Positions 25,419-63,955 of a stretch of DNA of 64,000 nt are shown here, piece after piece (position 1 is the first letter of the stretch; the number at the start of each line of letters is the position of its first letter). The notes beneath the pieces were generated by a model. That model ran no database searches. It was not told where the DNA came from and worked only from the letters and a program-made list of their open reading frames with translations. The translations under genes were made by a program, and so were the position numbers. This DNA comes from a virus, in IMG/VR virus record IMGVR_UViG_3300045988_036168. The stretch is one strand, 5' to 3'.

Positions 25419-25420
25419 AC

Positions 25421-25452: not shown

Positions 25453-25483
25453 TATGGAATATCCCGAAAAAGGAGGACTTCGT

Positions 25484-27202
25484 ATGGCTTCTCGCATCGC
25501 CGAGAAACTGGCCGCGAAGAAGGCGGCCATCTATATTCGCGTTTCTACTCATTGGCAGGTGGACAAAGACTCCCTCAAAGTTCAGCGCCGCGAACTTATC
25601 GCCTATGTCACGCTGGTGCTGGGCATCACCGACTACGTCGTGTTTGAAGACCCCGGCTACTCGGCCAAGAACACAGACCGCCCAGAATATCAGGCCATGA
25701 TGGATCGCATCCGCGCAGGCGAGTTTACCCACCTTGTCGTCTGGAAGATTGACCGTATCAGCCGCAACCTGATTGACTTCGCCGCCATGCACGACGAACT
25801 GCAGTCCCTCGGTGTCACCTTCGTCTCCAAGAACGAGCAGTTCGACACCTCCTCCGCCATCGGTGAGGCCATGATGCGCATTATCCTGATTTTCGCCGAG
25901 CTGGAGCGCAAGACCACCGCCGAGCGCGTCACGGCCGTCATGCTCTCCCGTGCCTCAGACGGTCAATGGAATGGTGGCCGTGTTCCCTTCGGCTATTCGT
26001 GGTCGAAGGAAACAAAGACATTCTCCATCGTCCCCGAGGAGGCAAAGGCCATCCGCCGCATGGCCGAACTGTACGAGCAGTACCAGTCCTTGCTCTATGT
26101 CGCCAAGTACCTCAACGACGCCGGTATCGTCACGAAGACGGGCGGCCAATGGACGCCAACCACGGTGCGCACCATCCTGACAAACCCGTGGTACATCGGC
26201 CAGTATGTCTATAACGTCCACTCAGACGGCAAGGGCATCGAGAAGCGCGACTCTGACGAATGGATCACCGTCGAGAACCACCACGAACCCATTCTGAACG
26301 AAGATGTATTCTGCCGCATGAAGTTCCTGCTGACTCGGAACAAGCGCGGCGGCGTTCCCTCTCACAAAACATACGTCAGGAAGAACATCCACGTCTTTGC
26401 TGGCCTGCTCCGCTGCGGTCAGTGCGGCTCCAACATGACAGCCAACCTCGACCGGCGGCGAGCGAACGGCTTCCGCCCCTCCCAATACGCCTGCGGCAGC
26501 CGGCGGCGCAAAGGAACCTCCTGCACCAACAAGTACATCTCCGACACCACGCTCGGCCCGTTCGTCCTGAACTACGTCGCCAACATCATCAGAGCCTCCA
26601 AGAACTTTTCTGAGACCACGACGCCCGATGTTCTGGAGCGTAAGCTGCTCCGCGGCGAAGCGTTCGAGGACGTGGCCTCCGTCAGCACCGACGCTCTGGG
26701 CCAGCTTCTCGATGCGTTCCGATCCGCCGGTGACGCCGTGGAGTACCGCCCGCAAATCGCCTTCTCCGGTGATGACAACTCCATCCGTGAAATTGACACC
26801 CTCCGCGCTCGGCGCCGCAAGCTCGACAACGCCCTCGCTCGTTTGAACGCCCTGTACCTCTACGACGACGAAGCCATGCCAGAGAAAGACTTCGTCATGC
26901 AGCGCGGCCAGATCACCAAACAGCTCGAAGAAGTCAATGCCCGCATTGAGGAACTGCAGAACCAAGAGTCCAGCGAGGAACTGGGCGACGACTTCATCGG
27001 CAAGGCCAGCTACTACATCATGGCGAACAAGCTGATCGAAGACCGCTACATCGACTACGAGAAGTACATCCGAGCCATTGACCCCTCTATCCCGCGCAGC
27101 TTCCTCCAGCAGATCATAGACCACATCGTCGTGAACGATGGCCGCGTCACCTCCATCACATTCAAGAACGGTGCGACCCACACATTCACCTACAAGACAT
27201 GA
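25484..27202 (+). CDS. Large serine recombinase (integrase)
   Basis: 572 aa from ATG 25484 (AGGAGG RBS). AAIYIRVSTHWQ carries the catalytic Ser. Also has a recombinase domain, a CGQCGSNMTA zinc ribbon and a C-terminal coiled coil. Confidence 0.92.
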   Translation: MASRIAEKLAAKKAAIYIRVSTHWQVDKDSLKVQRRELIAYVTLVLGITDYVVFEDPGYSAKNTDRPEYQAMMDRIRAGEFTHLVVWKIDRISRNLIDFAAMHDELQSLGVTFVSKNEQFDTSSAIGEAMMRIILIFAELERKTTAERVTAVMLSRASDGQWNGGRVPFGYSWSKETKTFSIVPEEAKAIRRMAELYEQYQSLLYVAKYLNDAGIVTKTGGQWTPTTVRTILTNPWYIGQYVYNVHSDGKGIEKRDSDEWITVENHHEPILNEDVFCRMKFLLTRNKRGGVPSHKTYVRKNIHVFAGLLRCGQCGSNMTANLDRRRANGFRPSQYACGSRRRKGTSCTNKYISDTTLGPFVLNYVANIIRASKNFSETTTPDVLERKLLRGEAFEDVASVSTDALGQLLDAFRSAGDAVEYRPQIAFSGDDNSIREIDTLRARRRKLDNALARLNALYLYDDEAMPEKDFVMQRGQITKQLEEVNARIEELQNQESSEELGDDFIGKASYYIMANKLIEDRYIDYEKYIRAIDPSIPRSFLQQIIDHIVVNDGRVTSITFKNGATHTFTYKT

Positions 27203-31029: not shown

Positions 31030-32892
31030 CTACACCGCCACCATGTCCAGCAGGGCGGCCATTGTCGTGATGGTGTCGCCTACTTTGGCGACGTATTCGG
31101 GGAAGTTTGCCCTTGCAACAGCCGCAGCCATCGGCGGGCAGACGGCGTTGCCACAGCGGGCGACCTGTTCGTTCTTCGGGTACGGGTTGCCCATGTAATC
31201 GCGGTCGATGATGTAATCGGGTGGGAACCCCATCGCATTGTAAAGCTCTCTCGGGGAGAGCATCCGCAGGCCGATGTCTGCGATGAAGTAGAGCGTCCCG
31301 CCGATGCTCAGAAGCAGCAGGTCGTCATCGGCCAGCTTATAACCGCAGTAGCGGTTCAGCAGTTCGCGGATCAGCGGCCAACGATACAGGTTCTCGTCCG
31401 GGCCAGCCTTGCAAAGCAGCGTGTCGCAGAGGGCGAAGGTTCCTCCGCCGCAAGCCTTTTTCTGGCCCGCGCCTGCCGTTACGGTCTGCATCGGTTCTGC
31501 AGGGCTGCTCCCCAAGTTGTCTCCCTTGAACTTCACCACATGGGCCGCGCACACCGCATTGTGGTCGATGGCCGTCACCGTCGGAAGCGGCTCTTCCATC
31601 TTCTCGCCGACCACACCGCTGTAATACTTCACCAGATTTGCGCAGGTCAGACCGTAGCGGTTCGAGGCATCCACGGTGGGGATTGGAGCGCCGAGGCCAG
31701 AGGCTCGGACGTTTTCTGTCTGCTCGGTATGGTACTGAATGAGCGAGGGCGCCACGATACCGCCCGTATGCTTGGCGGTAATGGTTTTGTATGGGCCACG
31801 CACATCGGCGACGTGGCCGCCTCCTGCGTGATTACATTCGGCCAGATATGGGGTTACAAGCATCTGGTTCCCTGCTGTCGTCACGGTATGTACCGGATCA
31901 CCGGCAGGCGCTCCGACGCTGTTGCTGGTGTTCGTCGCCGTGAACGGTGCCAGCACCGGCTTGCAGAGGTTGTGCTTGCCGCTCCCGACCACCGTAGGCA
32001 GCGGTTCCTCAATGTCGTGTACCCGTGGGGCCTGTCCCTTTCGTTCTCCATAGCCGGTCGGGACGATATACGGCTGGCCGCTCTTGATGGTGAATTTATC
32101 CACGCCGCGGATGATGCGCCGCATGGTGTTGTCCGCCAAAGGCCGCACCGCCTTCAAATTGTACCGCTCCTTGATTTCCTCCTTGGTGTCGAAGATGGAC
32201 GGGCAAGGTAGGCTCCAGTCGATGATTTCCGCCGCACTGCGCCACGGTTTCAGCCTGCCGCTCTTCACGGCTTCGCTGTCCCGCGGAGCGTGGGTCGGTT
32301 CGGGCCACACAATGGGCTTTCCGTCGCAACGGGCAATCAGGACAAACCGCTTGCGGCTGGTCGGTGCGCCATAATCAGCCGCCACCAGCTCACGCCATTC
32401 GACCTCGTAGCCGAGATCCCGAAGCTGACCGATGAACTTTCTGAACGTCGTGCCTGCCAACTTCTTTACAGGCTTGCCCTTTCTGACCGGCCCCCATGTC
32501 TGGAACTCTTCGACATTTTCGAGGAAAATCACTCGTGGCCGCACCAAAGCGGCCCATCTCAGGGTGATCCACGCAAGGCCGCGGATTTTCTTGTCAACGA
32601 GAGCTGCGCCCTTAGCCTTGCTGAAATGCTTGCAGTCGGGCGAGAACCACGCACCGCCCACGGGACGCCCGCGGCATACGTCACGCGGGTCAACATCCCA
32701 AACGGACGCCTGATAATGCTCCGTGTACGGGTGGTTCGTCTTGTGCATCAGGATCGCCGCAGGGTCGTGGTTGATGGCCGCCGCCACCGTAATGCCGAGG
32801 CCGACCTCCATGCCCGTCGATGCGCCGCCACCGCCCGCGAAGCTGTCAACGAAGATTTCGTCGTCGATGCCGATTTGTGCGCAATTTCTCAT
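31030..32892 (-). CDS. DNA (cytosine-5)-methyltransferase, long form (620 aa)
   Basis: FAGGGGAS (motif I), SPDCKHFS (motif IV-like), IFLENVEEF (motif VI), TSRKRFVLIA (motif VIII). Confidence 0.88.
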   Translation of the reverse strand: MRNCAQIGIDDEIFVDSFAGGGGASTGMEVGLGITVAAAINHDPAAILMHKTNHPYTEHYQASVWDVDPRDVCRGRPVGGAWFSPDCKHFSKAKGAALVDKKIRGLAWITLRWAALVRPRVIFLENVEEFQTWGPVRKGKPVKKLAGTTFRKFIGQLRDLGYEVEWRELVAADYGAPTSRKRFVLIARCDGKPIVWPEPTHAPRDSEAVKSGRLKPWRSAAEIIDWSLPCPSIFDTKEEIKERYNLKAVRPLADNTMRRIIRGVDKFTIKSGQPYIVPTGYGERKGQAPRVHDIEEPLPTVVGSGKHNLCKPVLAPFTATNTSNSVGAPAGDPVHTVTTAGNQMLVTPYLAECNHAGGGHVADVRGPYKTITAKHTGGIVAPSLIQYHTEQTENVRASGLGAPIPTVDASNRYGLTCANLVKYYSGVVGEKMEEPLPTVTAIDHNAVCAAHVVKFKGDNLGSSPAEPMQTVTAGAGQKKACGGGTFALCDTLLCKAGPDENLYRWPLIRELLNRYCGYKLADDDLLLLSIGGTLYFIADIGLRMLSPRELYNAMGFPPDYIIDRDYMGNPYPKNEQVARCGNAVCPPMAAAVARANFPEYVAKVGDTITTMAALLDMVAV

Positions 32893-35345: not shown

Positions 35346-36107
35346 TTACATCGGCTTTCTGATCTTGACGATGCGGGTAACGACATCTGTGCCACTTTCG
35401 CGGAACGCCCCCGGCTCCAGCTTGATCGTCTGAGCATACACGCTGCCGAGGAAGTCTCTGAACTCTACGGACTTCTTATCGCTGCGGAAGAACGTGCTCT
35501 CGCACATGATTGCAACCAGAACGCCGCCGGCATCCAGCAAATCGTAGGCATGGCGCACATGGTCGATGTCCTGATGGCGCGTAAAGGGCGGGTTCATCAC
35601 GACGCGGTTGATAGCGCCGATTTCCTTCTTCGTCACGTCCAGAAAATCGCGGTAGCTCACGCCATAGGGCTTCTCGGACAGATACCGCTTCATGTCGGTG
35701 TTCAGCTCGAAACAGCACATACCGGCGGGCAAATGCTCCCAAATGACATCCGCCAGTTGGCCGTTGCCGCAGGACGGCTCCAGTACCTCGGATGCGCTGT
35801 CGATCTCTGCCATCTCGCACATTCGCTCGGCGACGGCGCGGGGCGTCGGGAAGAACTGATACTCGCGCTTCAGGTCTTTCACTTCCTGCGTGAGCATGAC
35901 GTTCTCCAGCATCTCCGCCACATTGTCATCCTCAGCGAAGACGTGGGCCTTTGCCTTTCGGTTCCACTTGCCGCCCATGTTCTCCAGAACCTTGTTGACC
36001 TCCGTGTAGGTCTTGCGGTCAAGCTGAACACTCGGCAGGTAAAGCAGGTTTCCGTCCGCTCTGCACTCGCCCAGCACGTTCAGCACATTCTCAGGGATCT
36101 TTGCCAT
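35346..36107 (-). CDS. N6-adenine DNA methyltransferase (gamma-type)
   Basis: FFPTP, LEPSCGNGQL (motif I), VVMNPPF (motif IV). Confidence 0.85.
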   Translation of the reverse strand: MAKIPENVLNVLGECRADGNLLYLPSVQLDRKTYTEVNKVLENMGGKWNRKAKAHVFAEDDNVAEMLENVMLTQEVKDLKREYQFFPTPRAVAERMCEMAEIDSASEVLEPSCGNGQLADVIWEHLPAGMCCFELNTDMKRYLSEKPYGVSYRDFLDVTKKEIGAINRVVMNPPFTRHQDIDHVRHAYDLLDAGGVLVAIMCESTFFRSDKKSVEFRDFLGSVYAQTIKLEPGAFRESGTDVVTRIVKIRKPM

Positions 36108-44830: not shown

Positions 44831-44925
44831 ATCGCTGTCTCCTTTTCTTTGTAAGAAAACCGGAGACTTTCCTGAACTGTTGCTCTGGCTATCTCCGATT
44901 ATCCATCTGGTTATTTTGTAACTTT

Positions 44926-44953
44926 ATTATACTGCGATACCTACCTATGTCAA
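44926..44953 (-). promoter_or_regulatory. Sigma-70-type promoter with TAGGTAGG box
   Basis: Minus strand TTGACA-TAGGTAGGTATCGCAG-TATAAT. Lies inside a 57-bp block (44915-44971) identical to 53884-53940. ATTATCCA box at 44898-44905. Confidence 0.65.
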
Positions 44954-45009
44954 TATGTTTTCGTTAATTTTTATGAAGAAATTTTCTATCTATATACGTT
45001 TCGCGATAT

Positions 45010-47205: not shown

Positions 47206-47419
47206 CTGAGATTCCACAGCTTTTCTCCTCCTTGTCCGTCAGCCGCTTCAACGCGGCCGCTTGCTCTTCGATAAGGTCTGCGGCAGCCTTTGCCACCGTG
47301 CCGGCGCATTTGAACCGTGCTGGCCGCTCAAACGCAGGGCATTGCTCCTTCGGGCAGCGTCCTGTTTCGATGGCCGATTGATGGCATCGAAGCGCCAAAA
47401 GAACTTCTTGCGGTGTCAT
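47198..47419 (-). CDS. hypothetical Cys-containing protein (73 aa)
   Basis: ORF trimmed to ATG 47419, which overlaps the MTase stop. Confidence 0.5.
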   Translation of the reverse strand: MTPQEVLLALRCHQSAIETGRCPKEQCPAFERPARFKCAGTVAKAAADLIEEQAAALKRLTDKEEKSCGISDV

Positions 47420-48192
47420 CAGCCCACCTCCTTGCTGTGGCTTCTGCAGCACTCGCGGAGGCGGGTGCGCATCACGTCGCAATACTGCTTTTCATTCTCA
47501 ATGCCTATGTACTGCCGCCCCGTTCTGCAGCAGGCAACACCGATGGAGGCACTTCCAGCGCAGCAGTCGAGCACGACCTCGCCGGGGTTGGTATATGTGA
47601 GCACCAGTCTCTCGCACAGCCATACCGGCTTCTGCGTCGGGTGCAGGTGGCTCGTCTGCTTATCGCTGGGGCCTTTGACAACACTTCGCGGGTAGCGGTC
47701 TGTGTTGCCGCCGCCCTTGACTTCCTTCGTCGCCTTCTGGTAGATCTCAGTGCGGTTCTGCGTGTCGATGTAATGGGTGTAGCTGTTCACCGGCTGATGG
47801 CCGTCCGTCTTCTGCGGGTTGTACGTCGGCTGGCGGCGGTAGAAAATCAGGATGTTCTCATGCGCCCGCATGGGCATTCGCTTCGCATTTAGATGGCCGG
47901 TGGCGTTGCTCTTCTCCCAGATCCACTCGTACCGCAGATTTCTCAGGTTGCTGCATCCCAGCACCTTGTCGAACGGCGTCTGCGCAAACAGAGCTACCGC
48001 TCCATCCTTTTTCACGACGCGGTCGGCTTCGCTCCAGAACGCATCAAGGTCAATCGGCGTGTCCCACTTGCAGTTTGTTCGCCCATACGGCAGATCCGTG
48101 AAAAGGAAATCCACGCTTCCCGCCGGCAGGAGCCGCATCCCGTCGATGCAGTCTCCCAAATAGGTCTTATAGTTCCAGTCTTTGCGCTCCAT
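47419..48192 (-). CDS. Beta-class N6-adenine/N4-cytosine DNA methyltransferase
   Basis: FLFTDLPYG (DPPY motif), HPTQKP, VLDCCAGSASIG (motif I). Confidence 0.9.
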   Translation of the reverse strand: MERKDWNYKTYLGDCIDGMRLLPAGSVDFLFTDLPYGRTNCKWDTPIDLDAFWSEADRVVKKDGAVALFAQTPFDKVLGCSNLRNLRYEWIWEKSNATGHLNAKRMPMRAHENILIFYRRQPTYNPQKTDGHQPVNSYTHYIDTQNRTEIYQKATKEVKGGGNTDRYPRSVVKGPSDKQTSHLHPTQKPVWLCERLVLTYTNPGEVVLDCCAGSASIGVACCRTGRQYIGIENEKQYCDVMRTRLRECCRSHSKEVG

Positions 48193-53620: not shown

Positions 53621-53848
53621 TTATCCGTAAATCTGAGTGACGATCTCAACGCCGGCATTGATGGCTGCCGGGATGTCCGTCCCGAGCTGCCGGTAGAAGT
53701 CAGGATGAACAATGCACTCATAAGCTCTGCACATCGTATCTCTCTGCTCCGCCGTGATGTTGATGCGGAAACCCTTTGCAATCCGAAGGGCCTCTTTGAA
53801 GTTGCCCGCGGCTACGGCTTCGCGCACGATGTCAGATTTACGTTTCAT
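53621..53848 (-). CDS. hypothetical protein (75 aa)
   Basis: First ORF after the promoter at 53895-53922. Confidence 0.55.
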   Translation of the reverse strand: MKRKSDIVREAVAAGNFKEALRIAKGFRINITAEQRDTMCRAYECIVHPDFYRQLGTDIPAAINAGVEIVTQIYG

Positions 53849-53894
53849 GGTCTCCGTCCCTTTCTAATTAGCCGGTTGGTTAATTTGTAACTTT

Positions 53895-53922
53895 ATTATA
53901 CTGCGATACCTACCTATGTCAA
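53895..53922 (-). promoter_or_regulatory. Sigma-70-type promoter with TAGGTAGG box
   Basis: Minus strand TTGACA-TAGGTAGGTATCGCAG-TATAAT. The 57-bp block 53884-53940 is identical to 44915-44971. Confidence 0.65.
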
Positions 53923-53990
53923 TATGTTTTCGTTAATTTTACAAATTATTTTTCTGTATCATATTCACATACGTTTATATTCGACAGGCA

Positions 53991-54027
53991 GAAAAAGACG
54001 GCCCCGGCACAAGGCCGAGGCCGCCCA
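53991..54027 (-). terminator. Intrinsic terminator after the antirepressor-like cassette
   Basis: Minus strand GGCGGCCTCGGC-CTTGT-GCCGGGGCCGTC (12 bp, two G:U) followed by TTTTTCT. Confidence 0.7.
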
Positions 54028-54028: not shown

Positions 54029-54556
54029 TCACGCTTCTGCGGTCACTATGTACTTTTTGAGCTCAAGCAGCTCCAACAAAATCGCGTCGATTCGCCGGTT
54101 GATGGCGTCGCTTCCAGCTTTAGGGGGAGGTGTCGGCTTCTCGGGGACAGCTACCTGCGTCGGTGCTGGCAGCTCCGTCGGCGTCTGCTCGTCTGGCTTT
54201 CCCAGCTTACAGGCGAACACCTTGCCCTCGATCCATGCCCTCGTTTCCTTGCTGCATCCGAAGATGTCCAAAATCATCCGCCCGCAGCGTTCGGTCACGA
54301 AGTACATCGGCACAGACCGGCGGGATGCGCCACCCGTCTTCCCGTTGACCGGAAAAGGCAGTTTCACCAGCTTCACGTCGCTCTCGCTCTTTGCTTCGCG
54401 CTGGCACCACTTGGTCGGATAGGCGCAGCCACAGGCGGCCAGCAGATCCCGTGCCGCATACATCGTCTCGCCTTCGTTCAGGAGAACGCGGACTGCGCTT
54501 CCCTCCTGCTCCACAACGGCTACTCTGCCAATGAAGCTCTTGACGGTCTCGCTCAT
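54029..54556 (-). CDS. Possible Bro-N/antirepressor-like protein with Pro-rich linker
   Basis: VRVLLNEGETMYAARDLLAACGCAYPTKW and MYFVTERCGRMILD..SKETRAWIEGKVF loosely follow the Bro-N pattern. Weak call. Confidence 0.4.
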   Translation of the reverse strand: MSETVKSFIGRVAVVEQEGSAVRVLLNEGETMYAARDLLAACGCAYPTKWCQREAKSESDVKLVKLPFPVNGKTGGASRRSVPMYFVTERCGRMILDIFGCSKETRAWIEGKVFACKLGKPDEQTPTELPAPTQVAVPEKPTPPPKAGSDAINRRIDAILLELLELKKYIVTAEA

Positions 54557-54825
54557 ACCGCACCGCCTTTCTCCGCTTCACGGTTCGCAAAGTTCACCGC
54601 GAAGATGGCGTTGCAGACCTCCATGTGGCCGGCGAACTCTTCCATCTCACCCATCAGCGCGTGAACTCTGTCCTTGATCTCGTAGAAGGCCAAGGCGCCT
54701 CTGTCCCTCTTCTCTGCCTCTCCCTCGGCCATGTCGAGGAAGTAGAAGTAGGTGGACTCGAACATCTCCAGAAATACATCCAGCTTTGCCGCGTCCGCTC
54801 TCAATTTGTCGGGGGTCGTCATCAT
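54553..54825 (-). CDS. hypothetical protein (90 aa), paralog of 28487..28759
   Basis: Same length and shared motifs FE.TY, AFY, AG, AI.AVN. AAGGAG RBS. Confidence 0.55.
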   Translation of the reverse strand: MMTTPDKLRADAAKLDVFLEMFESTYFYFLDMAEGEAEKRDRGALAFYEIKDRVHALMGEMEEFAGHMEVCNAIFAVNFANREAEKGGAV

Positions 54826-54850
54826 AAGTGTATTGCTCCTTTCGTCGTTC

Positions 54851-54879
54851 TTGACAGCGGCCGGCAGCCATGTTACACT
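54851..54879 (+). promoter_or_regulatory. Plus-strand promoter facing the 54983-55010 promoter
   Basis: TTGACA-17 nt-TACACT, located in the 5' leader of the minus-strand cassette. Confidence 0.5.
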
Positions 54880-54885
54880 TACCTT

Positions 54886-54968
54886 GCTCAGAGGTGTGTA
54901 ACGCAGTCACAGGTGGCTGCCGAACCGCCGGAACCCTTGGTGTTGCAAGCACTGAGGGTTCTTTTTTG
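54886..54968 (+). ncRNA. Predicted cis-antisense sRNA of about 83 nt
   Basis: Starts downstream of the 54851-54879 promoter. Ends at GAACCCT-17 nt-AGGGTTC + TTTTTTG (54931-54968). No ATG/RBS inside. Fully complementary to the minus-strand leader. Confidence 0.45.
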
Positions 54969-54982
54969 TTTCCTGTGATTTG

Positions 54983-55010
54983 ATTATAACATTTTACCTA
55001 CCTAAAGCAA
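54983..55010 (-). promoter_or_regulatory. Sigma-70-type promoter with TAGGTAGG box (antirepressor-like cassette)
   Basis: Minus strand TTGCTT-TAGGTAGGTAAAATGT-TATAAT. Followed by a structured leader of about 150 nt. Confidence 0.6.
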
Positions 55011-55060
55011 GATAGGTGCGCGGTAATAACATTTAACCGTTCGGATAACAGCAAAAACGC

Positions 55061-55091
55061 GAAAAAGCCCTGCGTCAGACGACGCGGGGCT
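55061..55091 (-). terminator. Intrinsic terminator after the XRE gene
   Basis: Minus strand AGCCCCGCGTC-GTCT-GACGCAGGGCT followed by TTTTCG. Confidence 0.7.
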
Positions 55092-55120
55092 ATGCTCGTT
55101 TTTACGCTCATATACTTTGC

Positions 55121-55474
55121 CTATCTCTCTTTCAGAATGACCCCGGCCATCTCCGCAAGCATCTCAATCTGGGACGGTGTCGGATCGGACTCAGAAAAAA
55201 TTTTTTGAATTTTTTCGGCCTCCGTGCCTTCCACGAGGTCTGGCAGGATATAATTCGGTGAAACTCGTAATTCGCGGCATAAAGTGGCGAATACCGGCAG
55301 GCTCGGCAACTTCTTTCCGCCCTCAATCTGGCGCAGATACGTCGAATTGATGTTGCAAGCCTCTGCCAGCTTCTCAGCCGTCAGGCCGCGGTCTTTTCGG
55401 GCTTTGTTGATTCTCGTTCCAAATAGCTTCTTGTCCACTTTTTGCTCCTCCAATAATGTATGCCGTCGGTTCAT
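55121..55474 (-). CDS. XRE-family HTH regulator
   Basis: RINKARKDRGLTAEKLAEACNINSTYLRQIEGGKKLPSL. The start could be 55474 or 55489. Confidence 0.75.
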   Translation of the reverse strand: MNRRHTLLEEQKVDKKLFGTRINKARKDRGLTAEKLAEACNINSTYLRQIEGGKKLPSLPVFATLCRELRVSPNYILPDLVEGTEAEKIQKIFSESDPTPSQIEMLAEMAGVILKER

Positions 55475-55503: not shown

Positions 55504-55532
55504 TTGACGCTCACGAAATCCACTGTTAGAAT
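55504..55532 (+). promoter_or_regulatory. Promoter of the PD-(D/E)XK orphan
   Basis: TTGACG-17 nt-TAGAAT, 48 nt upstream of the ATG at 55581. Divergent from the XRE gene. Confidence 0.6.
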
Positions 55533-55580: not shown

Positions 55581-56666
55581 ATGGGTCTTTCAGGGTCTAA
55601 ACTCTACCGCCTTTCCGGTGGCACCGTCATCCCGGCCAGCGAGGCTCTATATCCCGCAGAGGCCGATCTTCAGCAGCTTATTGCAGAAAATCCGCAACTG
55701 CTGCTCAGCTCCCCCAATGAGGGCCAGCGCCTTTACCTGTTGCGTCGAGAACAGCCCGTGCGCGATGCTCCAGATGGGCCAGCCCTTTTCTCCATTGACC
55801 ATCTCTTCATTGACCAAGACGGTCTTCCCGTGCTCGTCGAGGTGAAGCGGAGCACCGACACCAGAATCCGCCGCGAGGTCGTAGGCCAGATGCTCGACTA
55901 CGCCTCCCGTATGCGGGCGTGGAGCGCCAGCGAACTCAGGTCGTCCGCGTCGCTTCTGGATGTTCCAGATGATCTATGGGCCGCTCTCGACGGCAATCTG
56001 AAGGCCGAGCGGATGCGGCTGATTTTCGCGGCAGACTCTATCCCTGGCTCCTTGGCCTCCATGATCGACTTCCTCGACCGCAGCATGGACGCTATCGAGG
56101 TCTGCGGCGTCGAGATTAAGCGGTACGTTTCCGAGGACGGTGCCGAGCTGATCTCCTCCACGATTGTCGGCGGTGGCAATTCGCCTGTCAAGCGGGCTGC
56201 CAGATACTCCACTATCTGGGACGCCGACAGCATGGCCGAGCAGCTCAACCAGCGCGAAAACTCAGCCATCGTTCCGGTTGTCGCCGCTCTCACATCGTTC
56301 GCCTCCAGCGCCGGTCTGCAGATCAGTTATGGCCGCGGGACGAAGTTTGGCGTGTGCAGGGCGCTTCGGAACGGCCGCAAGGTATTTAGTGTGACCTCGT
56401 GGGAAAAGGGCCATACGGGTCTCAGGACAGCCGTTGAGGTATCTTTACCGTCGTTGGTAGACCAGACCTGCGGCACGTTCGAGGAAGGTGCGCTACGCTC
56501 CATGCTCCTGACGTTCCCCGACGCTTCCCCAGCCGACGCCGAGCAATTCATCTTCGGCTCCAGCCAGTTCCAGTATATCGACCTGCGATTACTTGCAGAG
56601 CCATCAAACCTCTCGCATTTCCAGAACGCCATCACTCAAATCGTTCAGGCCATCCCTGAAGAATAA
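55581..56666 (+). CDS. NucS/EndoMS-like PD-(D/E)XK nuclease-domain protein with uncharacterised 230-aa C-terminal region
   Basis: AEADLQQLIAENPQLL ... FSIDHLFIDQDGLPVLVEVKRSTDTRIRREVVGQMLDYA gives the D..(D/E)xK core. GGAGGA RBS. Confidence 0.6.
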   Translation: MGLSGSKLYRLSGGTVIPASEALYPAEADLQQLIAENPQLLLSSPNEGQRLYLLRREQPVRDAPDGPALFSIDHLFIDQDGLPVLVEVKRSTDTRIRREVVGQMLDYASRMRAWSASELRSSASLLDVPDDLWAALDGNLKAERMRLIFAADSIPGSLASMIDFLDRSMDAIEVCGVEIKRYVSEDGAELISSTIVGGGNSPVKRAARYSTIWDADSMAEQLNQRENSAIVPVVAALTSFASSAGLQISYGRGTKFGVCRALRNGRKVFSVTSWEKGHTGLRTAVEVSLPSLVDQTCGTFEEGALRSMLLTFPDASPADAEQFIFGSSQFQYIDLRLLAEPSNLSHFQNAITQIVQAIPEE

Positions 56667-56788: not shown

Positions 56789-57304
56789 TTACCGATGCCA
56801 CAGCTCCTCGGAAACCTCGACCGACTCTTCTTTGAGTGCAGAGAGCCGTTCCTCGAACTCGTATTCCGTGATTTCGCCCGTCTTCCGCAGGCCGCGGAGT
56901 ATCGAGATCTCCTGCGGGATCTCCGCATAGCGTTTCCGCAGGTGGTCAATGCGGGAGTCCTGCTTCGCAATCTCCTGCCGCCACCCTTCCCAGAGCGGCG
57001 TCGTGAACTCCTTCCATTCCAACTCAGGCAGCGTCACGCTCAGGTCATCCCTCGCCTTGTCGTCCACGTTCAGTGGCGGATGGAGCCGCAGGATGTAGTA
57101 GATCTCGTACAGGTTCATATCCGCTTCGCTCCCCAACTCCGCATACTCGATCTTCGTCACCTGCTCTATGTTGACGGTGCGGTGCATCGGCTTGCTGAAC
57201 AGGTGGCCGCGTATTCTGCTCTGCAGCGGCTGCTTGGTGCGGCCAACGTACACGAGGCAGCCCCCGTACCAGATCCGATAAATCAGGAACCCTTGCACCC
57301 TCAT
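56789..57304 (-). CDS. GIY-YIG nuclease-domain protein (free-standing homing-endonuclease-like)
   Basis: ORF trimmed to ATG 57304. FLIYRIWYGGCLVYVGRT..SRIRGH..NLYEIYYI. Confidence 0.6.
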   Translation of the reverse strand: MRVQGFLIYRIWYGGCLVYVGRTKQPLQSRIRGHLFSKPMHRTVNIEQVTKIEYAELGSEADMNLYEIYYILRLHPPLNVDDKARDDLSVTLPELEWKEFTTPLWEGWRQEIAKQDSRIDHLRKRYAEIPQEISILRGLRKTGEITEYEFEERLSALKEESVEVSEELWHR

Positions 57305-57534
57305 TTGACGCACCTGAAACCAGCAAATTGTGCCAGACCCGCACTCCCGTCCGGGCATTTGCAGGGAATGTGCATCGGCACGTTATTTCGCGTGAACGGG
57401 TTCGCTGCGAGCTGCTGATGCTGGATCACTTTGCCGAGCAGGGCCGGGAGCATTTCCGTCGGCACCTCCTGAGGCTGTGATCTGGACAACAGCCGACCGC
57501 ACAACGGGCATTTGTAAACCGGCTGATACTTCAT
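57301..57534 (-). CDS. zinc-ribbon protein (77 aa)
   Basis: ORF trimmed to ATG 57534. CPLCG...CKCPDG. Confidence 0.5.
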   Translation of the reverse strand: MKYQPVYKCPLCGRLLSRSQPQEVPTEMLPALLGKVIQHQQLAANPFTRNNVPMHIPCKCPDGSAGLAQFAGFRCVK

Positions 57535-58583: not shown

Positions 58584-58979
58584 TCAGTATTTCAGTCGCA
58601 CACCCTCAGGCAGCGGCGGCATCTCACGCCAGAACCTCGGCACCCACACAAACGGAACGAACGTCGGGCGTTCAGAGCCGCAAAGCCTTTGCCACACGCA
58701 GCTAAAGATGTGACCGTACGAGTCCTTCGTCAAGACCTCTTGCCCCTCCCGTGGCTTTTGTTCTTTGAGCGTGTGCCATCCATCCTCCAGCATTGGCATC
58801 CACCATTTCACATGAACGTCCGGTTCCAAACCGTCCGGACGGAAGAGCGGCGGTTCCTTCGGGTCGTATACCACGAGGGAGCCATCGGTCACATGGCCCC
58901 ATTTGCTGATAATCAGAACCCTCTCGCCAGCGGGAGGCAACGCCTCCTTTGTGGCCGTCCATCCGTTTGCCATCATCAA
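58584..58979 (-). CDS. DUF551-like phage protein
   Basis: The W..TKEALPPAGERVLI pattern is typical of DUF551. Confidence 0.45.
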   Translation of the reverse strand: MMMANGWTATKEALPPAGERVLIISKWGHVTDGSLVVYDPKEPPLFRPDGLEPDVHVKWWMPMLEDGWHTLKEQKPREGQEVLTKDSYGHIFSCVWQRLCGSERPTFVPFVWVPRFWREMPPLPEGVRLKY

Positions 58980-59395
58980 CCTCCATCGCCGAGCATAAGC
59001 TGGCCGGTCTGGAACACCTCATAGAGTGTCTTCTCATTTCGGTCAATCAGCTTCGGGAAGAACAGCTCGTCCATCGTGGCCTGCTCCGTCTCCACGAGGG
59101 CGACCTGCGCGGCGATCCAGTCCTTCAGGTTGCGCCACGCGATGCGCTCGGCTTGTTCGTCGTCGCACTTGGTACGCTCTTTTGCCATCACTGCCTTAAC
59201 GCCGTCCGGTCGTGCTTCCAGTCGGAAACCATGCAGGGAGCCGCAGCAGTCCAGCGCGAATGTGACTGCCGTGACTTTGCCGTTTTCGGCGTAGTCCATC
59301 ATCACCTTTCGTGCTCCGTGCGCGGCGAGGATGCCTTGGATCTCGCCGACGGTCTGAACCGCCGGCACCTTGGTCGTGTAGTTCTTAATCGGCAT
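58976..59395 (-). CDS. hypothetical protein (139 aa)
   Basis: ORF trimmed to ATG 59395 (GAGGAGG RBS). Confidence 0.55.
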   Translation of the reverse strand: MPIKNYTTKVPAVQTVGEIQGILAAHGARKVMMDYAENGKVTAVTFALDCCGSLHGFRLEARPDGVKAVMAKERTKCDDEQAERIAWRNLKDWIAAQVALVETEQATMDELFFPKLIDRNEKTLYEVFQTGQLMLGDGG

Positions 59396-59409
59396 CTGCA
59401 GTCCTCCTC

Positions 59410-60009
59410 TCAGTCGATGAACCGGATGTTCTCCGCCGCCGTGCTCCACACCTTGCCGTGCTCGTCCTCGACAATGCCCGTTGTGACAGGGACGGCCCCA
59501 TTATCGAACTCCTCGAACGTGCTTCCCCATGTGTGGAACCATGCGACAAATTCATCCTCGCGCCACCCGTCGTTCGTGCGCTCATACACATGGGCGATGC
59601 ACTTACGGCAGGTCGGCACGGGTGGCTTCCCGCGCAAAGGCCCTCCCTCCTGCCACGGGCGGAACTGCTGGATCTTTTCCAGCAGGCCCTTCGGATTGCC
59701 GTCGAAGAGCAAGGCTCGGTCATCGACATAGACCTTCGCAGGTGGCTTTTCCGCCGCCACATCGTCAACCTCAATGCCGTTCTCCCGAAGGTAGCGCCGC
59801 ACCGCTCCCATGCCCTCAGGCGTGGCGCATCTGGTGGACACGACCACCACTCTGTACCCCGCGGCTCTGATCCGCTTGATTTCTTCGTCAATGAGCGACA
59901 CGGGCGGGTCGGGTACAACGCCTGCGCCCTGCCAGCCACTCACATAGGAATGGATGACGCCGTCAAAATCCAGCACCACATTCGGCTGATACTTCATCTC
60001 CCAAGCCAT
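59410..60009 (-). CDS. HAD-superfamily phosphatase-like protein with C-terminal extension
   Basis: VVLDFDGVIHSY (DxD motif I), VVVVSTR, KVYVDDRALLFDG. Confidence 0.6.
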   Translation of the reverse strand: MAWEMKYQPNVVLDFDGVIHSYVSGWQGAGVVPDPPVSLIDEEIKRIRAAGYRVVVVSTRCATPEGMGAVRRYLRENGIEVDDVAAEKPPAKVYVDDRALLFDGNPKGLLEKIQQFRPWQEGGPLRGKPPVPTCRKCIAHVYERTNDGWREDEFVAWFHTWGSTFEEFDNGAVPVTTGIVEDEHGKVWSTAAENIRFID

Positions 60010-60437
60010 TACTGCGCCTCCTTGCCAGTTCCAGTGCTGCCCCAGCCGCCGCGGTTCGGGTTGCCGAGATCCTCGACCTGCTCGAACTCAACAGGCTCGT
60101 CCTGCTTCACGAGGCGGAACTGGCAGATGCGCGTCCCCTTCGGGATTTCCGTATGACGGATGGCAACCGCCGGGAAGCCCCAGATGTCATCGTTACCGCA
60201 GTAGCTATGCTCGATGATGCCCACGCTGTTCGCCATGATGACGCCGAAGTTCTTGCAGGTCGAGCTTCTGGGAACGACCTGCGCATAGTAGCCGGCAGGA
60301 AGTTCCATCGCAATGCCGAGCGAAATGATTTTGCAGTCCAACGGCTCCAGAACGATGTCCTCGGCGGTGTAAAGGTCAACCCACTCGCCATGTGACTCGG
60401 GCAGCGGGTTCCCGTGCGTGTTGATTTTGACTTTCAT
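60009..60437 (-). CDS. dut: dUTP diphosphatase (YncF/YosS-like)
   Basis: ORF trimmed to ATG 60437 (AAGGAGG RBS). WVDLYTAEDI, VVPRSST, GIIEHSYCGNDD, RGGWGSTG. Confidence 0.88.
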   Translation of the reverse strand: MKVKINTHGNPLPESHGEWVDLYTAEDIVLEPLDCKIISLGIAMELPAGYYAQVVPRSSTCKNFGVIMANSVGIIEHSYCGNDDIWGFPAVAIRHTEIPKGTRICQFRLVKQDEPVEFEQVEDLGNPNRGGWGSTGTGKEAQ

Positions 60438-60438
60438 G

Positions 60439-60987
60439 TTAAGCCCTCCTTGATGTTTCGTATCTGTAATCGTAGCCATCGAGCCTGTACGGGTCTTTCA
60501 CTTCACCCGTACATCTGGCCCAGATGGCGTTTTGACTGATGTAGTTCTTCTTGGCCGCCTCTCGTCCAGAAGAGTAAATGGCGACCACTTGACCGTCCTG
60601 ATCGACCTTCATCACGGCCTTGCGCCGGTTTGCGCTGGAGATTTTGCCGCTGACCTGCTTGCTGGCGAACGACAGGTTCACCAGCTCGCAATCCATCTTT
60701 GCGCCGTTTCGATGGATGATGTTGTACCCCGGCCTGCGACCTCCCATGAAGGCGTCGGCCATGAGCCACACAACAGGCACATCTACTTTTCGGTTGTCCG
60801 CTGTCCGCATCTTCACGCAGGCGCGGGTTCGTCCGCTGATGTACGGCTTCAGGACGTACCACTCGCCACTCTCCAGTTCCTTTCGGACGACTGCCTCGCG
60901 GTTGATTTGGTATCGGAAGCGATAGCCGGGGATTTCTACCCATTCCGCGCTGTCAGGAGTTTGGCTTTTACACCGCTTCGCGCTCAT
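60439..60987 (-). CDS. HNH homing endonuclease (NUMOD4 + HNH_3 + C-terminal HTH-like module)
   Basis: WVEIPGYRFRYQINREAVV (NUMOD4), IIHRNGAKMDCELVNL (HNH_3), VVAIYSSGREAAKKNYISQNAIWARC. Confidence 0.8.
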   Translation of the reverse strand: MSAKRCKSQTPDSAEWVEIPGYRFRYQINREAVVRKELESGEWYVLKPYISGRTRACVKMRTADNRKVDVPVVWLMADAFMGGRRPGYNIIHRNGAKMDCELVNLSFASKQVSGKISSANRRKAVMKVDQDGQVVAIYSSGREAAKKNYISQNAIWARCTGEVKDPYRLDGYDYRYETSRRA

Positions 60988-61577
60988 GCCTTGTCTCCGG
61001 TTTCGTCCAGATAGGTCGCCTGCAGATCGGCGATGTGCAGCAAGACGGCCAGCGGGAACTTGTCAAAGGCGTTGCCAACGCTGTACCCGCCGCCTTGGAA
61101 GTCGTTATCCGAGAACCCCATGTGCCAACGGATTGCCATAGCCTCCTCGCGGCTCAGGCGCATAAACCCAGAGATGATGTAGACGCTCTTCTCACCATGC
61201 CCGTAGGGCAGCTTGTCATCGACCACATAGAACGGGTACTGTTCCCACCTGCCCTGATCGTTCTTGCGGTTGCGCATCTCGACCGCGTAGAAGTTCGCCT
61301 TGCAGATGTCGTGAAGCAGACCGCAAACCGCAATCGTCTCCATCGACGGCTCATTGAAGCCCGGAGTGATGGTCGCCTCGTTGGCACAAATTGCCTTCAT
61401 CCGTTCAAATACATGGAGGCTGTGCTCAAGCAACCCGCCGGGGCTGGACAGGTGGAAACGGGTGCTGGCCGGTGCCGTAAAGAAGTCCGAGGACTCGATC
61501 CACGCCAGCAGCTTGTCAGCGCCCGGTCGCGTGATATTCTCTGTGTACGCCTTGATAAACTTGTCTTTCATGCTCAT
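60984..61577 (-). CDS. HD-domain phosphohydrolase
   Basis: HLSSPGGLLEHSLHV, GLLHDICK, YGHGEKS, LHIADL. Confidence 0.75.
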   Translation of the reverse strand: MSMKDKFIKAYTENITRPGADKLLAWIESSDFFTAPASTRFHLSSPGGLLEHSLHVFERMKAICANEATITPGFNEPSMETIAVCGLLHDICKANFYAVEMRNRKNDQGRWEQYPFYVVDDKLPYGHGEKSVYIISGFMRLSREEAMAIRWHMGFSDNDFQGGGYSVGNAFDKFPLAVLLHIADLQATYLDETGDKA

Positions 61578-61584
61578 ATCCTCC

Positions 61585-61743
61585 TCAAAAATACATCATG
61601 CTCAGTGCCCAAGACGCCAGATGCAGAACGCCCGCAGCCGCGAACAGCGCGATATAGACGTGCTTACCTCTGCCGCTCTCGCCGATGACGCCGACGGTTG
61701 CCAGCACCATCACGATCATCGTAAACACCTGAAAGAACCTCAC
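61585..61743 (-). CDS. putative small membrane protein (52 aa from GTG, or 44 aa from an internal ATG)
   Basis: Not in the ORF track. Two hydrophobic segments (MIVMVLATVGVIG, VYIALFAAAGVLHLASWAL). Its stop precedes the GGAGGA RBS of the HD gene. Confidence 0.4.
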   Translation of the reverse strand: MRFFQVFTMIVMVLATVGVIGESGRGKHVYIALFAAAGVLHLASWALSMMYF

Positions 61744-62099
61744 TTCACATACGCCCCCTTCCATGCTTCGATTGCTTCATCGCAGAACTCGCCGTCGCAC
61801 TGACCGACAACGCCCTTTCTGCCCTCGCAGTATTCGCACAGATCCGTTTCGAGCATATCGACGATCTGGTCATCGGTCATGTCCCCGTAATACTCGCCAT
61901 TGGTGAGCTTCACCGCTATGAAAACGCGCCCGCTGTCGATAGCCTGCTGGCAGGTCCTCAACTTCCATTCCAACAGCACAGCCTTGTGCATCGTCTTCGT
62001 TGTGCGATGACCACAATGGACGATGAACCAGTCATGCTCCAGAAGTTCGGCCACGCTGTCAACGCGGTCTCCCTGTTTGTACTTTCTCTTCATTTTCAT
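61740..62099 (-). CDS. hypothetical protein (119 aa)
   Basis: ORF trimmed to ATG 62099 (AGGAGG RBS). Confidence 0.55.
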   Translation of the reverse strand: MKMKRKYKQGDRVDSVAELLEHDWFIVHCGHRTTKTMHKAVLLEWKLRTCQQAIDSGRVFIAVKLTNGEYYGDMTDDQIVDMLETDLCEYCEGRKGVVGQCDGEFCDEAIEAWKGAYVK

Positions 62100-62107
62100 G
62101 TTACCTC

Positions 62108-62956
62108 CTAAAATCCGTTCCATATTTGCTTGCCGTGATACTCGAAGCATTCGGCATCGCAGCAGTCTTCGGGAGTCAGATCCGCAAGCCGCTTTCGGCT
62201 GCGGGAGATGAACAGGTCGGAGTCCATAGGCGGCTTCGGGTTCTTATCCCTCAGCAGCTCGTCTACCTCCAGCAGCTTCGCGTAAGTCTGCGGCTGGTGT
62301 TCCTTGAGGTTCTCGAAGAAATAGTTTCGGTGGAACGGGCAAAAGCAGCAGGCGGACGCCTTGGTGTCCAGCCCCCAGACATCCAGTATGTAGGCGTAGT
62401 TGTCAGCCCTCGTCAGCTCCATGTCCACCAACGGGAAACGGTTCACAAACATCGGGTTCGGGCTGTCCTTGCACCGCTGTTTTTCCTCGAAGCTGAACCC
62501 CATGTGCATCTCGTGGGCCTTCTTGTCCTCGTCGCGGAGCCGCTGGCCTTTCTTGTAGCCGAGCACTTCCCAGCGGACGAACTTTGAGATGCGCTCCACC
62601 TTGTAGTCGAGGGTGCAGTTTCGCGGCATCCTTGACTTGTGACCGTCATCCCGCAGCGTCCACCATGGGATGCTGACCGTGCGGCGTCTCCCGAAGTTCT
62701 GCATCAGATCCCGATGCAGCAGCGCGTCCAGCATCTCATATCGAATACCGGCGGCGTCGCAGGCTCGGTGTACGAACTCGGCCTGTTGCATGACCCACGG
62801 CGGCTCGAAGCCGAGGTCGCAGAAGACGACCAGATCGTAAACCGGAACCAGCGGGTACGGGCGTTCGTGGCCTTTGCGCTCGGCGTCCACATTCTCACAG
62901 GACATCAGGGCCAAGGCCGTCGATTGCATTCCCGCACCGAAGGACAAAATCTTCAC
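62108..62956 (-). CDS. PAPS-reductase/PP-loop ATP-pyrophosphatase-like protein
   Basis: ILSFGAGMQSTAL is an N-terminal PP-loop variant common in phage PAPS-reductase-like proteins. Also has a CCFCPF cluster. Confidence 0.65.
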   Translation of the reverse strand: MKILSFGAGMQSTALALMSCENVDAERKGHERPYPLVPVYDLVVFCDLGFEPPWVMQQAEFVHRACDAAGIRYEMLDALLHRDLMQNFGRRRTVSIPWWTLRDDGHKSRMPRNCTLDYKVERISKFVRWEVLGYKKGQRLRDEDKKAHEMHMGFSFEEKQRCKDSPNPMFVNRFPLVDMELTRADNYAYILDVWGLDTKASACCFCPFHRNYFFENLKEHQPQTYAKLLEVDELLRDKNPKPPMDSDLFISRSRKRLADLTPEDCCDAECFEYHGKQIWNGF

Positions 62957-63609
62957 GTTTGCCCCTCCACGCTTTCCCCGCGCCGGAACTCAGCGGCCAT
63001 CATGTCGGCAGCCTCGCGGCTGATGCCGATTGCCTCGAACTGCTGGTAAATCTCCTCGCAGTCTTCAGGGGCCGCAGAGACCAGCGCAAAGGTCAATTCA
63101 GCATCCGTCGGAGCAGGCTTCTCGGGTTGTTCCTCAGCTTCAGCCTCAAGGTGCCGTGCTACCCTCTCCATGTATTCCTCGATCTTCGGCTTTCCGAACT
63201 CGACCACAGCCGTCATATAGTCCTCGTGCTCGGAAGCGTTTTCCTCGAACTCGCGGCTCCAGTTCAAAATGTGGTGGAACAGGTCGCGGCTGTCGATTTC
63301 TGCGCCGTTCGAGCCGAGCATCTGCGCCGCCAGCGCAGAGAGGTCATAGACGCACTCGCAAAGGCGGATCTCGCTGTCTTCACCCACCGTGGTCACGAAC
63401 TTCTCGCCGGCGTCGCTGTAACCACAGGTCTTGCAGTCCCAGACGTCTTCCCTGTCCGGTTCGTGCGTGACCTCGATGCAGTCATTCAGGCACCGAACGA
63501 ACGTGCCGCTGTCATCCAGTTCCCAGTCCTGCGTAACGTGCGCCGTCGCGCAAAAGGTCTTTCCGCCGCAACGTGGGCAGCGCAGAACCTCATTTTCTTT
63601 CAAAATCAT
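62953..63609 (-). CDS. zinc-ribbon protein with acidic tail (218 aa)
   Basis: ORF trimmed to ATG 63609 (GGAGGAG RBS). CPRCGG...CKTCG. Confidence 0.55.
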   Translation of the reverse strand: MILKENEVLRCPRCGGKTFCATAHVTQDWELDDSGTFVRCLNDCIEVTHEPDREDVWDCKTCGYSDAGEKFVTTVGEDSEIRLCECVYDLSALAAQMLGSNGAEIDSRDLFHHILNWSREFEENASEHEDYMTAVVEFGKPKIEEYMERVARHLEAEAEEQPEKPAPTDAELTFALVSAAPEDCEEIYQQFEAIGISREAADMMAAEFRRGESVEGQT

Positions 63610-63955
63610 CACTTGCTCCTCCATCACTCAGGCGCTTTTTCAGCCCTGCATATACTCCCTCAAGGGTTTCAACGAGTCCATCTGCCTCAAGGCTGTCCGT
63701 CGAAACCAGCCTGCAATCGCTCATGCTGATGTCGTCGATCAGATGGACGCCGTAGAACTGTTCGTCAGGCTCCAAACCGGCCTTGTTCTCAATCAGCGCC
63801 GCCGTTATCTCTCCGTTCTGTTCTTTCTCGGCCTTTGCCACGAGGAAGTAGGTCGAAGAGCGGTCGCCGTTGACCGTGGTTGGGCCGTTGCCCAGATCCG
63901 CCATCATCGCCTCTGCCAGTTCTTTCGGGGCGATTGCAAAATTGAACCTTTTCAT
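63590..63955 (-). CDS. hypothetical protein (121 aa)
   Basis: ORF trimmed to ATG 63955 (ATGA overlap with the upstream partial gene). Confidence 0.55.
   Translation of the reverse strand: MKRFNFAIAPKELAEAMMADLGNGPTTVNGDRSSTYFLVAKAEKEQNGEITAALIENKAGLEPDEQFYGVHLIDDISMSDCRLVSTDSLEADGLVETLEGVYAGLKKRLSDGGASDDFERK

Follow-up and report, generated by a model that had tools for sequence, protein, structure and literature searches.

The window, by which we mean the whole 64,000-nucleotide stretch of viral DNA from IMG/VR record IMGVR_UViG_3300045988_036168, carries between positions 54,029 and 55,474 a two-gene phage operon whose 5′ leader is probably a countertranscript switch, that is, a cis-antisense RNA control with two convergent sigma-A-type promoters. 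On comparative sequence evidence the antisense RNA and its convergent promoters probably form a real regulatory module, and the RNA most likely holds down the operon, which encodes proteins of 90 and 175 amino acids (aa). An earlier note, made from the window alone, had listed face-to-face promoters, a leader of about 150 nucleotides (nt) with nested helices, an untranslated plus-strand RNA of about 83 nt fully antisense to that leader, and a strong terminator behind the operon. All of the elements that it listed are present in the sequence at the positions it gave, and both the promoter pair and the predicted antisense RNA, with its conserved promoter, strand-specific terminator and conserved fold, have strong comparative backing. 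The elements are as follows.

54983-55010, minus strand: sense promoter (P_s), with the −35 element TTGCTT at 55010-55005, TAGGTAGG at 55004-54997 and TGt-TATAAT at 54991-54983
54826-54976, minus strand: 5′ leader of the operon mRNA, 151 nt, ending before the ATG at 54825
54553-54825, minus strand: gene for the 90-aa acidic protein, its stop overlapping the start of the next gene
54029-54556, minus strand: gene for the 175-aa protein (N-terminal domain of ~115 aa, linker, C-terminal helix)
53990-54026, minus strand: strong intrinsic terminator closing the operon after the 175-aa gene
54851-54879, plus strand: antisense promoter (P_as), TTGACA-17-TGtTACACT, 10 of 12 consensus matches, within the 3′ arm of the second leader stem-loop (SL2)
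54886-54968, plus strand: predicted non-coding antisense RNA of ~83 nt, with a 5′ tail, stem-loop A and a terminator hairpin
54930-54967, plus strand: intrinsic terminator of the antisense RNA, a 15-pair hairpin (54930-54962) with TTTTTT at 54962-54967

Scans confined to the window returned 6 promoter-like sites (3.1 ± 1.4 expected) and 9 terminator-like sites (5.4 ± 2.3 expected). Because consensus matches at this frequency are not above chance, relatives were examined, and it is conservation among them that gives the predicted promoter and terminator elements their significance. Homologues of the 175-aa protein were found at 54-94% identity, and down to ~20% by profile search. Matches in IMG/VR were nearly all 91-100% identical at the protein level and uninformative for covariation; the diversity was taken from metagenome contigs. 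A total of 74 leaders was extracted, with 38 distinct sequences over 342 nt and 26 over the leader proper, representing five lineages. Three lineages added later (L089, L090 and L091) bring the alignable total to eight, and two more (L085 and L087) have leaders that cannot be aligned to that of the window. The homologue contigs share a conserved block: a variable gene lies on the opposite strand, next comes an XRE gene, and after a gap of ~290 nt follow genes for proteins of 83-90 aa and 165-175 aa.

P_as lies ~10-40 nt upstream of the ribosome-binding site (RBS) and points towards P_s. Its two hexamers, its TG and its spacing of 17 nt are the same in every one of the 26 distinct leaders from the five lineages, while the spacer and flanks vary (the spacer reads GCGGCCGGCAGCCATGT in the window, GGCGTCCGCAGCTATGA in L016 and GCCGGAGGCAGCCGTGG in L026). 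None of the 14 promoter positions changes, compared with ~43% invariant columns overall, and the three further lineages retain TTGACA-17-TGnTACACT. This pattern of conservation indicates that P_as is under selection. In P_s, the TATAAT is invariant across all relatives, and the −35 element becomes TTGACA in two lineages, precisely where the TG extension is lost. Transcription from P_s probably starts at A54976.

The hairpin that would end the antisense RNA carries a strand-specific signature. Over 13 pairs, 11 of 338 cells are mismatched when the hairpin is read on the plus strand and 70 of 338 when it is read on the minus strand, because many of the pairs are G.U on the plus strand and would be C.A on the minus strand. 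Three separate one-sided substitutions, each in a different lineage, retain pairing in the plus orientation only. The T-run beside the hairpin is likewise confined to the plus strand, and 97.7% of the terminator cells in the antisense RNA alignment are paired. These comparisons indicate that the hairpin is selected as a plus-strand terminator. On the side from which plus-strand transcription could reach it, the nearest plus-strand gene ends at 27202; with no nearer gene on the incoming side, the terminator would therefore serve only the short antisense RNA.

The predicted antisense RNA is complementary to leader positions ~+9 to +91, and its terminator ends ~9 nt from the sense transcription start. 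Neither an RBS nor an open reading frame (ORF) is found inside its 83 nt. Its predicted fold has a free energy of −36.8 kcal/mol (z = −3.4), and the same shape (a tail of 3-7 nt, a stem-loop and the terminator) is formed by all nine representative sequences, with upper stems that differ between them (GCAGUCA/UGGCUGC, UCGCAG/CUGCGG and UCACGG/CCGUGA). Rfam gave no match at the gathering score over the whole window, and a relaxed scan of 54700-55150 gave chance-level matches only (E above 1). A trans-acting target within the window was considered and rejected, as no complementarity longer than 14 nt was found there.

On the sense strand, the leader runs from an A-rich start through a first stem-loop (SL1, 54931-54961) to the long SL2 (54853-54929), and the RBS, AAAGGAG at 54836-54842, is unpaired. 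The fold has a predicted free energy of −52.2 kcal/mol (z = −2.8), and the nested helices of the earlier note (GAACCCT/AGGGTTC at 54931-54961, CGGCAGCCA/TGGCTGCCG and GTTACAC/GTGTAAC) all belong to the minimum-energy structure. All nine representative sequences, from five lineages, form the same two hairpins. In the leader alignment 97.3% of the cells are paired and five pairs have changed on both sides; the covariation score was reached by none of 500 shuffles, and sliding the partners against each other abolished pairing. The compensatory changes in SL2 include one pair that is GC in 11 sequences, CG in 7 and AU in 2, and another that is CG in 19 and UA in 7.

The layout is also found where the sequence is not. 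The leaders of L085 and L087 are unalignable to the window, yet both show the same arrangement built from different sequence. Their sense promoters (TTGACT-16-TGtTATAGT in L085, TTGACT-16-TGcTACGAT in L087) carry a GGTAGG element in the spacer; an A-run and then a GC-rich hairpin would form the antisense terminator, ending 8-15 nt from the sense start. Close to the RBS stand antisense promoters, TTGACA-17-TACAAT with 11 of 12 matches in L087 and TGaTATAAT in L085, and the predicted antisense RNAs are 120 nt long in L087 and 94 nt in L085. When the sequences of L085 and L088 were read by eye, the wobble pairs again fell on the antisense strand. The protein pair persists over the same distance: the homologue of the 90-aa protein is always paired with a homologue of the 175-aa protein, even at 24-35% identity, and 175-aa homologues with 24-25% identity are still preceded by an 88-96-aa gene and a gap of 300-460 nt. 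In the window, a four-base overlap joins the 90-aa gene (54825-54553) to the 175-aa gene (54556-54029), and the two are apparently translationally coupled.

The sense and antisense start sites lie ~90 bp apart, and the two units overlap over nearly the whole upstream leader. With this distance, and with the antisense RNA ending so near the sense start, polymerases from P_s and P_as must meet. Convergent transcription is a setting for transcriptional interference (PMC5001618, PMC5423467). From the arrangement we infer both the production of the RNA and repression in two layers. In the first, a polymerase at or leaving either promoter would collide with or occlude the other. In the second, the 5′ end of the antisense RNA would meet the SL2 loop region and start a duplex, which at its full length of ~80 bp would destroy SL1 and SL2 and could lead either to cleavage of the mRNA by a double-strand-specific activity or to remodelling of the leader ahead of the RBS. 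A weak or repressed P_s, as in a lysogen, would leave the operon tightly silenced, and the operon would switch on when P_s overtakes P_as. Between lineages the greatest variation is seen in the 5′ part of the antisense RNA together with its target (a visual, unquantified reading of the alignments), and such variation would make the control lineage-specific.

Attenuation and direct occlusion of the RBS are unlikely routes, because the leader lacks a sense-strand terminator and the antisense RNA falls short of the RBS. A scan of the minus strand of the leader (54976-54826) found no terminator-like site, and an attenuation model was rejected on this ground; nor did leader folds in which the 5′ arm of SL2 is sequestered create a hairpin with a U-run. 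When that arm is sequestered, the 3′ arm is predicted in several lineages to pair with codons ~9-16 of the 90-aa gene (54826-54870 with 54780-54805 in the window, minus strand). This alternative pairing could be a route to translational control or an artefact of the conserved DAAKLD codons, and its conservation was not shown to exceed that imposed by the conserved amino acids. On sequence alone, the routes that remain are duplex-dependent cleavage, leader remodelling or interference by itself.

The element is a temperate prophage with a lysogeny module of its own at 23660-27202, and its main CI/Cro switch lies 31 kb from the cassette. The parts of this module, and a palindrome upstream of P_s, are as follows.

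23872-23660, minus strand: Cro-like helix-turn-helix (HTH) gene
23949-24395, plus strand: CI-like XRE repressor gene, whose true start may lie further downstream
24398-25315: gene for a 305-aa protein without a family match
25403-27202, plus strand: gene for a large serine recombinase of 599 aa
55033-55048, palindromic: 16-bp sequence TTATCCGAACGGTTAA, at −72 to −57 of P_s, one of six sites

The palindrome, TTAWCC-N4-GGNTAA, occurs at six sites in the window (12 matches on the two strands, compared with 0.53 matches expected): 10605-10620, 23594-23609, 23934-23949, 44899-44914, 53868-53883 and 55033-55048. One of these takes up the spacer of the Cro promoter (consensus TTGACA-17-TATAAT, minus strand, ~23955-23927), three are positioned at +5 to +20 relative to other TAGGTAGG promoters, and relatives have a palindrome at the same place beside the cassette promoter. 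A role of the palindrome as operator for the CI or Cro repressor of the prophage is probable. Assigning the operator to the XRE protein or to CI by protein comparison was tried and dropped, since the two are only 26% identical over the helix-turn-helix. A CI/Cro operator would link the cassette to the lysogeny circuit, though its position is unusual for repression. The temperate lifestyle and the probable CI/Cro operator just upstream of P_s both count in favour of a countertranscript switch.

Several points weigh against this interpretation. The plus-strand RNA is a prediction, and the promoter and terminator calls behind it are consensus matches that within the window alone do not exceed chance. 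The TGTCAA/AGTGTA motifs of P_as sit in leader helices (alignment columns 134-138 pair with 61-65), and their conservation could be due in part to this role in the leader rather than to promoter function. The usual read-outs of antisense control, a translation block and attenuation, are not evident: the leader has no sense-strand terminator, and the RBS at 54836-54842 lies outside the antisense RNA (start ~54886), which stops ~44 nt short of it and overlaps it in no alignable lineage. The covariation is based on few independent lineages, and MAFFT misaligns the apical part of SL2, so that the support for stem-loop A is qualitative and comes without formal covariation counts. Finally, lineage L083, at 35% identity, has a short leader without the module.

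Among known systems, the module belongs to the class of countertranscript control that includes P22 sar, plasmid CopA-type RNAs and pCF10 prgQ/prgX, while no Rfam family or sequence relative is detectable among them. As predicted from sequence, it has a promoter on the opposite strand inside the controlled unit, and a short non-coding RNA that is structured and ends at an intrinsic terminator of its own; the pairing-dependent sense-strand leader terminator of attenuation of the pT181/pIP501/pCF10 type is not found. In R1 CopA/CopT, in pIP501, pT181 and ColE1, and in IS10 RNA-OUT, an antisense RNA of ~80-100 nt with stem-loops and a single-stranded end acts on a leader target. The likeness would extend to a target that is itself a stem-loop and to a variable recognition region that sets specificity. 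These countertranscripts control replication or transposase genes via a leader peptide, an attenuator or the RBS, whereas here no attenuator or leader peptide is evident and the antisense terminator abuts the sense promoter.

Face-to-face promoters with overlapping transcripts are shared with Enterococcus pCF10 prgQ/prgX, in which transcriptional interference and antisense pairing have been modelled to give switch-like behaviour (PMC4519249). The antisense transcript of pCF10, however, encodes PrgX, and its pairing drives termination at a sense-strand attenuator, whereas the RNA described here is non-coding and self-terminated and no attenuator accompanies it. Coliphages 186 and P2 likewise have convergent promoters less than 100 bp apart that are subject to elongation interference (mechanism: PMC5001618, PMC5423467); there both promoters drive protein-coding operons of the main switch, while here one arm is a short RNA.

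The earlier note had read the locus as a second immunity-type cassette following the logic of P22 immI. In this reading, which we consider unlikely, the 175-aa protein would be a Bro-N-like antirepressor that inactivates the CI-like repressor, and the antisense RNA, possibly with the XRE protein, would silence it in the lysogen. The likeness to Pant/Psar of immI lies in a temperate phage, a short untranslated RNA from an internal promoter that points back at the sense promoter, and negative control over a gene that the lysogen keeps silent, the last of which would hold here by analogy. P22 sar RNA base-pairs with ant mRNA and blocks its translation, and a dangerous inducer would need tight antisense control of this kind (PMC13397905 for sar control of Ant). 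A separate CI/Cro switch and a CI/Cro-type operator adjoining the cassette promoter would also suit such a cassette.

The defining features of immI are nevertheless absent. The RNA lies wholly in the untranslated leader, ~44 nt before the RBS, whereas sar reportedly covers the ant RBS and the arc-ant junction (1987 papers in Genes Dev by Liao et al. and Wu et al.). Instead of flanking ribbon-helix-helix repressors of the Arc/Mnt type there is an upstream XRE regulator with an HTH, and the 90-aa protein gave no family match; it has a pI of 4.6 and a net charge of −8, contains no membrane segment, is not hydrophobic, and found no match in Pfam, PHROGs, NCBIfam or PADLOC. The surroundings, nucleotide-metabolism and methyltransferase genes here and sugar-modification genes in distant relatives, are an atypical context for immunity. 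The components show no sequence similarity to P22 immI, as the earlier note had itself stated.

The family alignment of the 175-aa protein shows a conserved N-terminal domain, a variable proline-rich linker and a conserved C-terminal helix. Sequence searches of Pfam, NCBIfam, PADLOC and the PDB found no match, the sole family match being phrog_34000, a PHROGs entry with no assigned function, and the Bro-N profile (PF02498) matched none of 21 family members in Pfam searches even at E ≤ 10. A first AlphaFold2 model, made with 21 close homologues, reached a predicted local distance difference test score (pLDDT) of 53 and was discarded as too poor; a model from 63 diverse sequences reached a pLDDT of 86. 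With the latter, Foldseek returned 14 matches in BFVD at E ≤ 1e-3, the majority of them named as Bro-N, 'Repressor domain' or Ant N-terminal proteins, aligned over ~105-110 residues at a root-mean-square deviation of 4.6-6 Å. A fold search of the PDB gave weak matches only, the best being a Ski/Dachshund domain (E ~0.2). In the model, then, the N-terminal domain has a Bro-N-like fold, a resemblance at the level of fold only; the Bro-N label of the earlier note stands at that level and fails at the level of sequence, where no model detects it.

Bro-N is a general phage DNA-binding domain, widespread among phage proteins of many functions, and not a marker of antirepressors. It is one of several interchangeable N-terminal domains in phage regulators of the Ant/AriS type, and in the study of those proteins the SOS-inhibitory activity was mapped to the C-terminal ANT/KilAC domain (PMC9043618). 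Searches of Pfam, NCBIfam and PHROGs found no ANT/KilAC or other Ant-type C-terminal domain in the 175-aa protein, whose C-terminus is the linker and one helix, so that of the two-domain make-up of Ant the N-terminal fold alone is matched. The label 'antirepressor' is a guess, because the domain that carried the activity in that study is absent here. As several defining features were looked for and not found, the module falls outside the P22 immI family. What it shares with immI is broad, namely an antisense-controlled and tightly silenced phage cassette. The description as a second regulated cassette is fair, as the CI/Cro/integrase module is separate; the immI reading as a whole has partial support only.

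It is rather improbable that the conserved sequence and structure reflect a cis-acting mRNA leader alone, one that binds a protein or ligand or affects stability, with the antisense promoter and terminator as by-products and no functional plus-strand RNA. SL2 is what this view explains well. Its covariation is genuine in the sense orientation, and in the helix formed by alignment columns 61-65 and 134-138 G.U pairs are possible in the sense orientation only (columns 62/137 and 64/135), which makes SL2 a feature of the mRNA; the antisense RNA cannot form it, as its start falls inside the SL2 loop. The promoter hexamers, moreover, lie inside or beside SL2 helices. A leader alone, however, leaves unexplained why the hexamers, the TG and the 17-nt spacing are invariant around a varying spacer, why the T-run and the wobble pairs of SL1 are confined to the plus strand, and why promoter-like and terminator-like elements are rebuilt from different sequence in L085 and L087. 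No Rfam family matches the leader either.

P_s is one of a series of related promoters in the window.

4125-4132, 10646-10653, 44940-44947, 53909-53916 and 54997-55004, minus strand: copies of TAGGTAGG in sigma-A-like promoters

These five copies compare with 0.21 expected, all are on the minus strand, and each stands directly after a −35 hexamer; the next such promoter beyond the operon terminator is at 53922-53895. The equivalent promoters of all relatives, very distant ones included, have TAGGYAGG or GGTAGG, and TAGGTAGG is probably the site of a phage or host factor. Three of the promoters have in common a repeat of ~100 bp (~10560-10700, 44850-44990 and 53830-53960) that extends over AAAATTAACG, TTGACA-TAGGTAGG-...-TATAAT and a downstream palindrome. 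These repeats have the look of a single strong, repressible promoter cassette that was copied, with each copy at the head of its own transcription unit. A more far-reaching and decidedly doubtful idea is that the module is the master gate of a phage-wide transcription programme, in which the Bro-N-fold protein, perhaps with its acidic partner, would read TAGGTAGG/GGTAGG and the lineage-variable antisense RNA would set an RNA-based 'immunity' specificity over that gate, different in each lineage.

Upstream of the cassette lie a regulatory gene and a nuclease-like gene.

55121-55438, minus strand: gene for an XRE-family HTH regulator of 105 aa, from a GTG at 55438 behind the RBS GGAGGAG, with matches to HTH_19 and HTH_3 at ~1e-11
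55062-55093, minus strand: intrinsic terminator of the XRE gene, conserved in relatives with changes on both arms
55581-56666, plus strand: gene for a 361-aa nuclease-like protein, divergent from the XRE gene, with a PD-(D/E)xK-like motif (DQDGLPVLVEVKR)

An XRE regulator with its own terminator had been placed directly upstream of the cassette, and both are there; the boundary then drawn at 55474 lies upstream of the real gene, because the start is most likely the GTG at 55438. The mechanical ORF (122 aa from an ATG at 55489) is probably too long, and counting from the GTG gives 105 aa, which agrees with the gene calls of 102-111 aa in relatives. Its terminator insulates the cassette promoter. 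The protein has weak RstR-like and CapH-like matches. While the XRE gene adjoins the cassette in lineages down to 35% identity, it is missing beside it in L085 and L087, and its membership in the cassette is uncertain.

The 361-aa protein matches PDC-S11, a defence candidate of PADLOC, at E = 1.9e-9, and has weak matches to Shedu SduA_C and NucS; its gene has a promoter of its own (TTGACG-17-TAGAAT, 55504-55532). In L083 and L089 a DUF4236 gene takes the place of the nuclease-like gene, and the position therefore looks like a swappable defence or moron slot. It is very unlikely that the operon itself is a toxin-control or abortive-infection module, with one or both proteins toxic to the host and the RNA acting like a type I antitoxin or addiction element to block their synthesis in the lysogen: the architecture equals that of antisense-controlled prophage toxin loci, the neighbouring gene is a candidate defence nuclease, and the gene pair is tightly conserved with apparent translational coupling, but neither protein shows the small size and hydrophobicity of type I toxins (19-residue hydropathy peaks below 1.0), neither has a PADLOC match, and the RNA leaves the RBS and coding region uncovered, unlike the usual type I antitoxins.

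To our knowledge, hardly any regulatory RNAs have been described from phages of strictly anaerobic gut Firmicutes. Sequence alone is enough to define the antisense RNA predicted here, which is conserved in many human-gut metagenomes, and the module combines convergent promoters and an antisense RNA in a compact natural form. The strand-specific signature of wobble pairs may help elsewhere to decide which strand of an inverted repeat is selected. Should the operon govern induction of the prophage or the transcription programme of the phage, the RNA would offer a means of acting on lysogeny in abundant gut bacteria; were the module indeed a master gate, it would constitute an RNA-specified layer of heteroimmunity in phages of gut Clostridia.

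The host is an Oscillospiraceae bacterium. The predicted RNA also occurs, alongside a 100% identical 175-aa protein, on chromosome AP018533.1, a complete genome under the name Clostridiales bacterium CCNA10, and a further copy with an identical 175-aa protein lies in an Oscillibacter metagenome-assembled genome. An annotated phage collection held no near match, only a distant one of 125 bp to Faecalibacterium phage FP_Brigit. The G+C content of the window is 56.8%, and the minus strand carries nearly all of its genes, which also include those for RecT, an exonuclease and a DnaC-like loader.

The cassette is surrounded by nucleotide-metabolism and methyltransferase genes. Upstream of it, a gene at 56789-57358 (minus strand) encodes a 189-aa protein with GIY-YIG and SHOCT, and a nucleotide-metabolism run at 58976-63627 (minus strand) comprises a dUTPase, an HNH endonuclease, an HD phosphohydrolase and a PAPS-reductase-like protein. 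In distant relatives, sugar-modification genes adjoin the cassette (L085, 3758-6492; L087, 4070-6195; L088, 1676-4487), the set comprising a PglD-like acetyltransferase, a PIG-L deacetylase, WbqC, a DegT aminotransferase and an epimerase/dehydratase. These contigs are phage or bacterial, and the genes may serve the modification of phage DNA or of surface glycans. Elsewhere in the window are an RtcB-like RNA ligase, at least three DNA methyltransferases and a protein with a ParB-like nuclease domain (11679-12851, 31030-32892, 35346-36107, 47419-48192 and 24-956), a set that suggests heavy investment in counter-defence and RNA repair.

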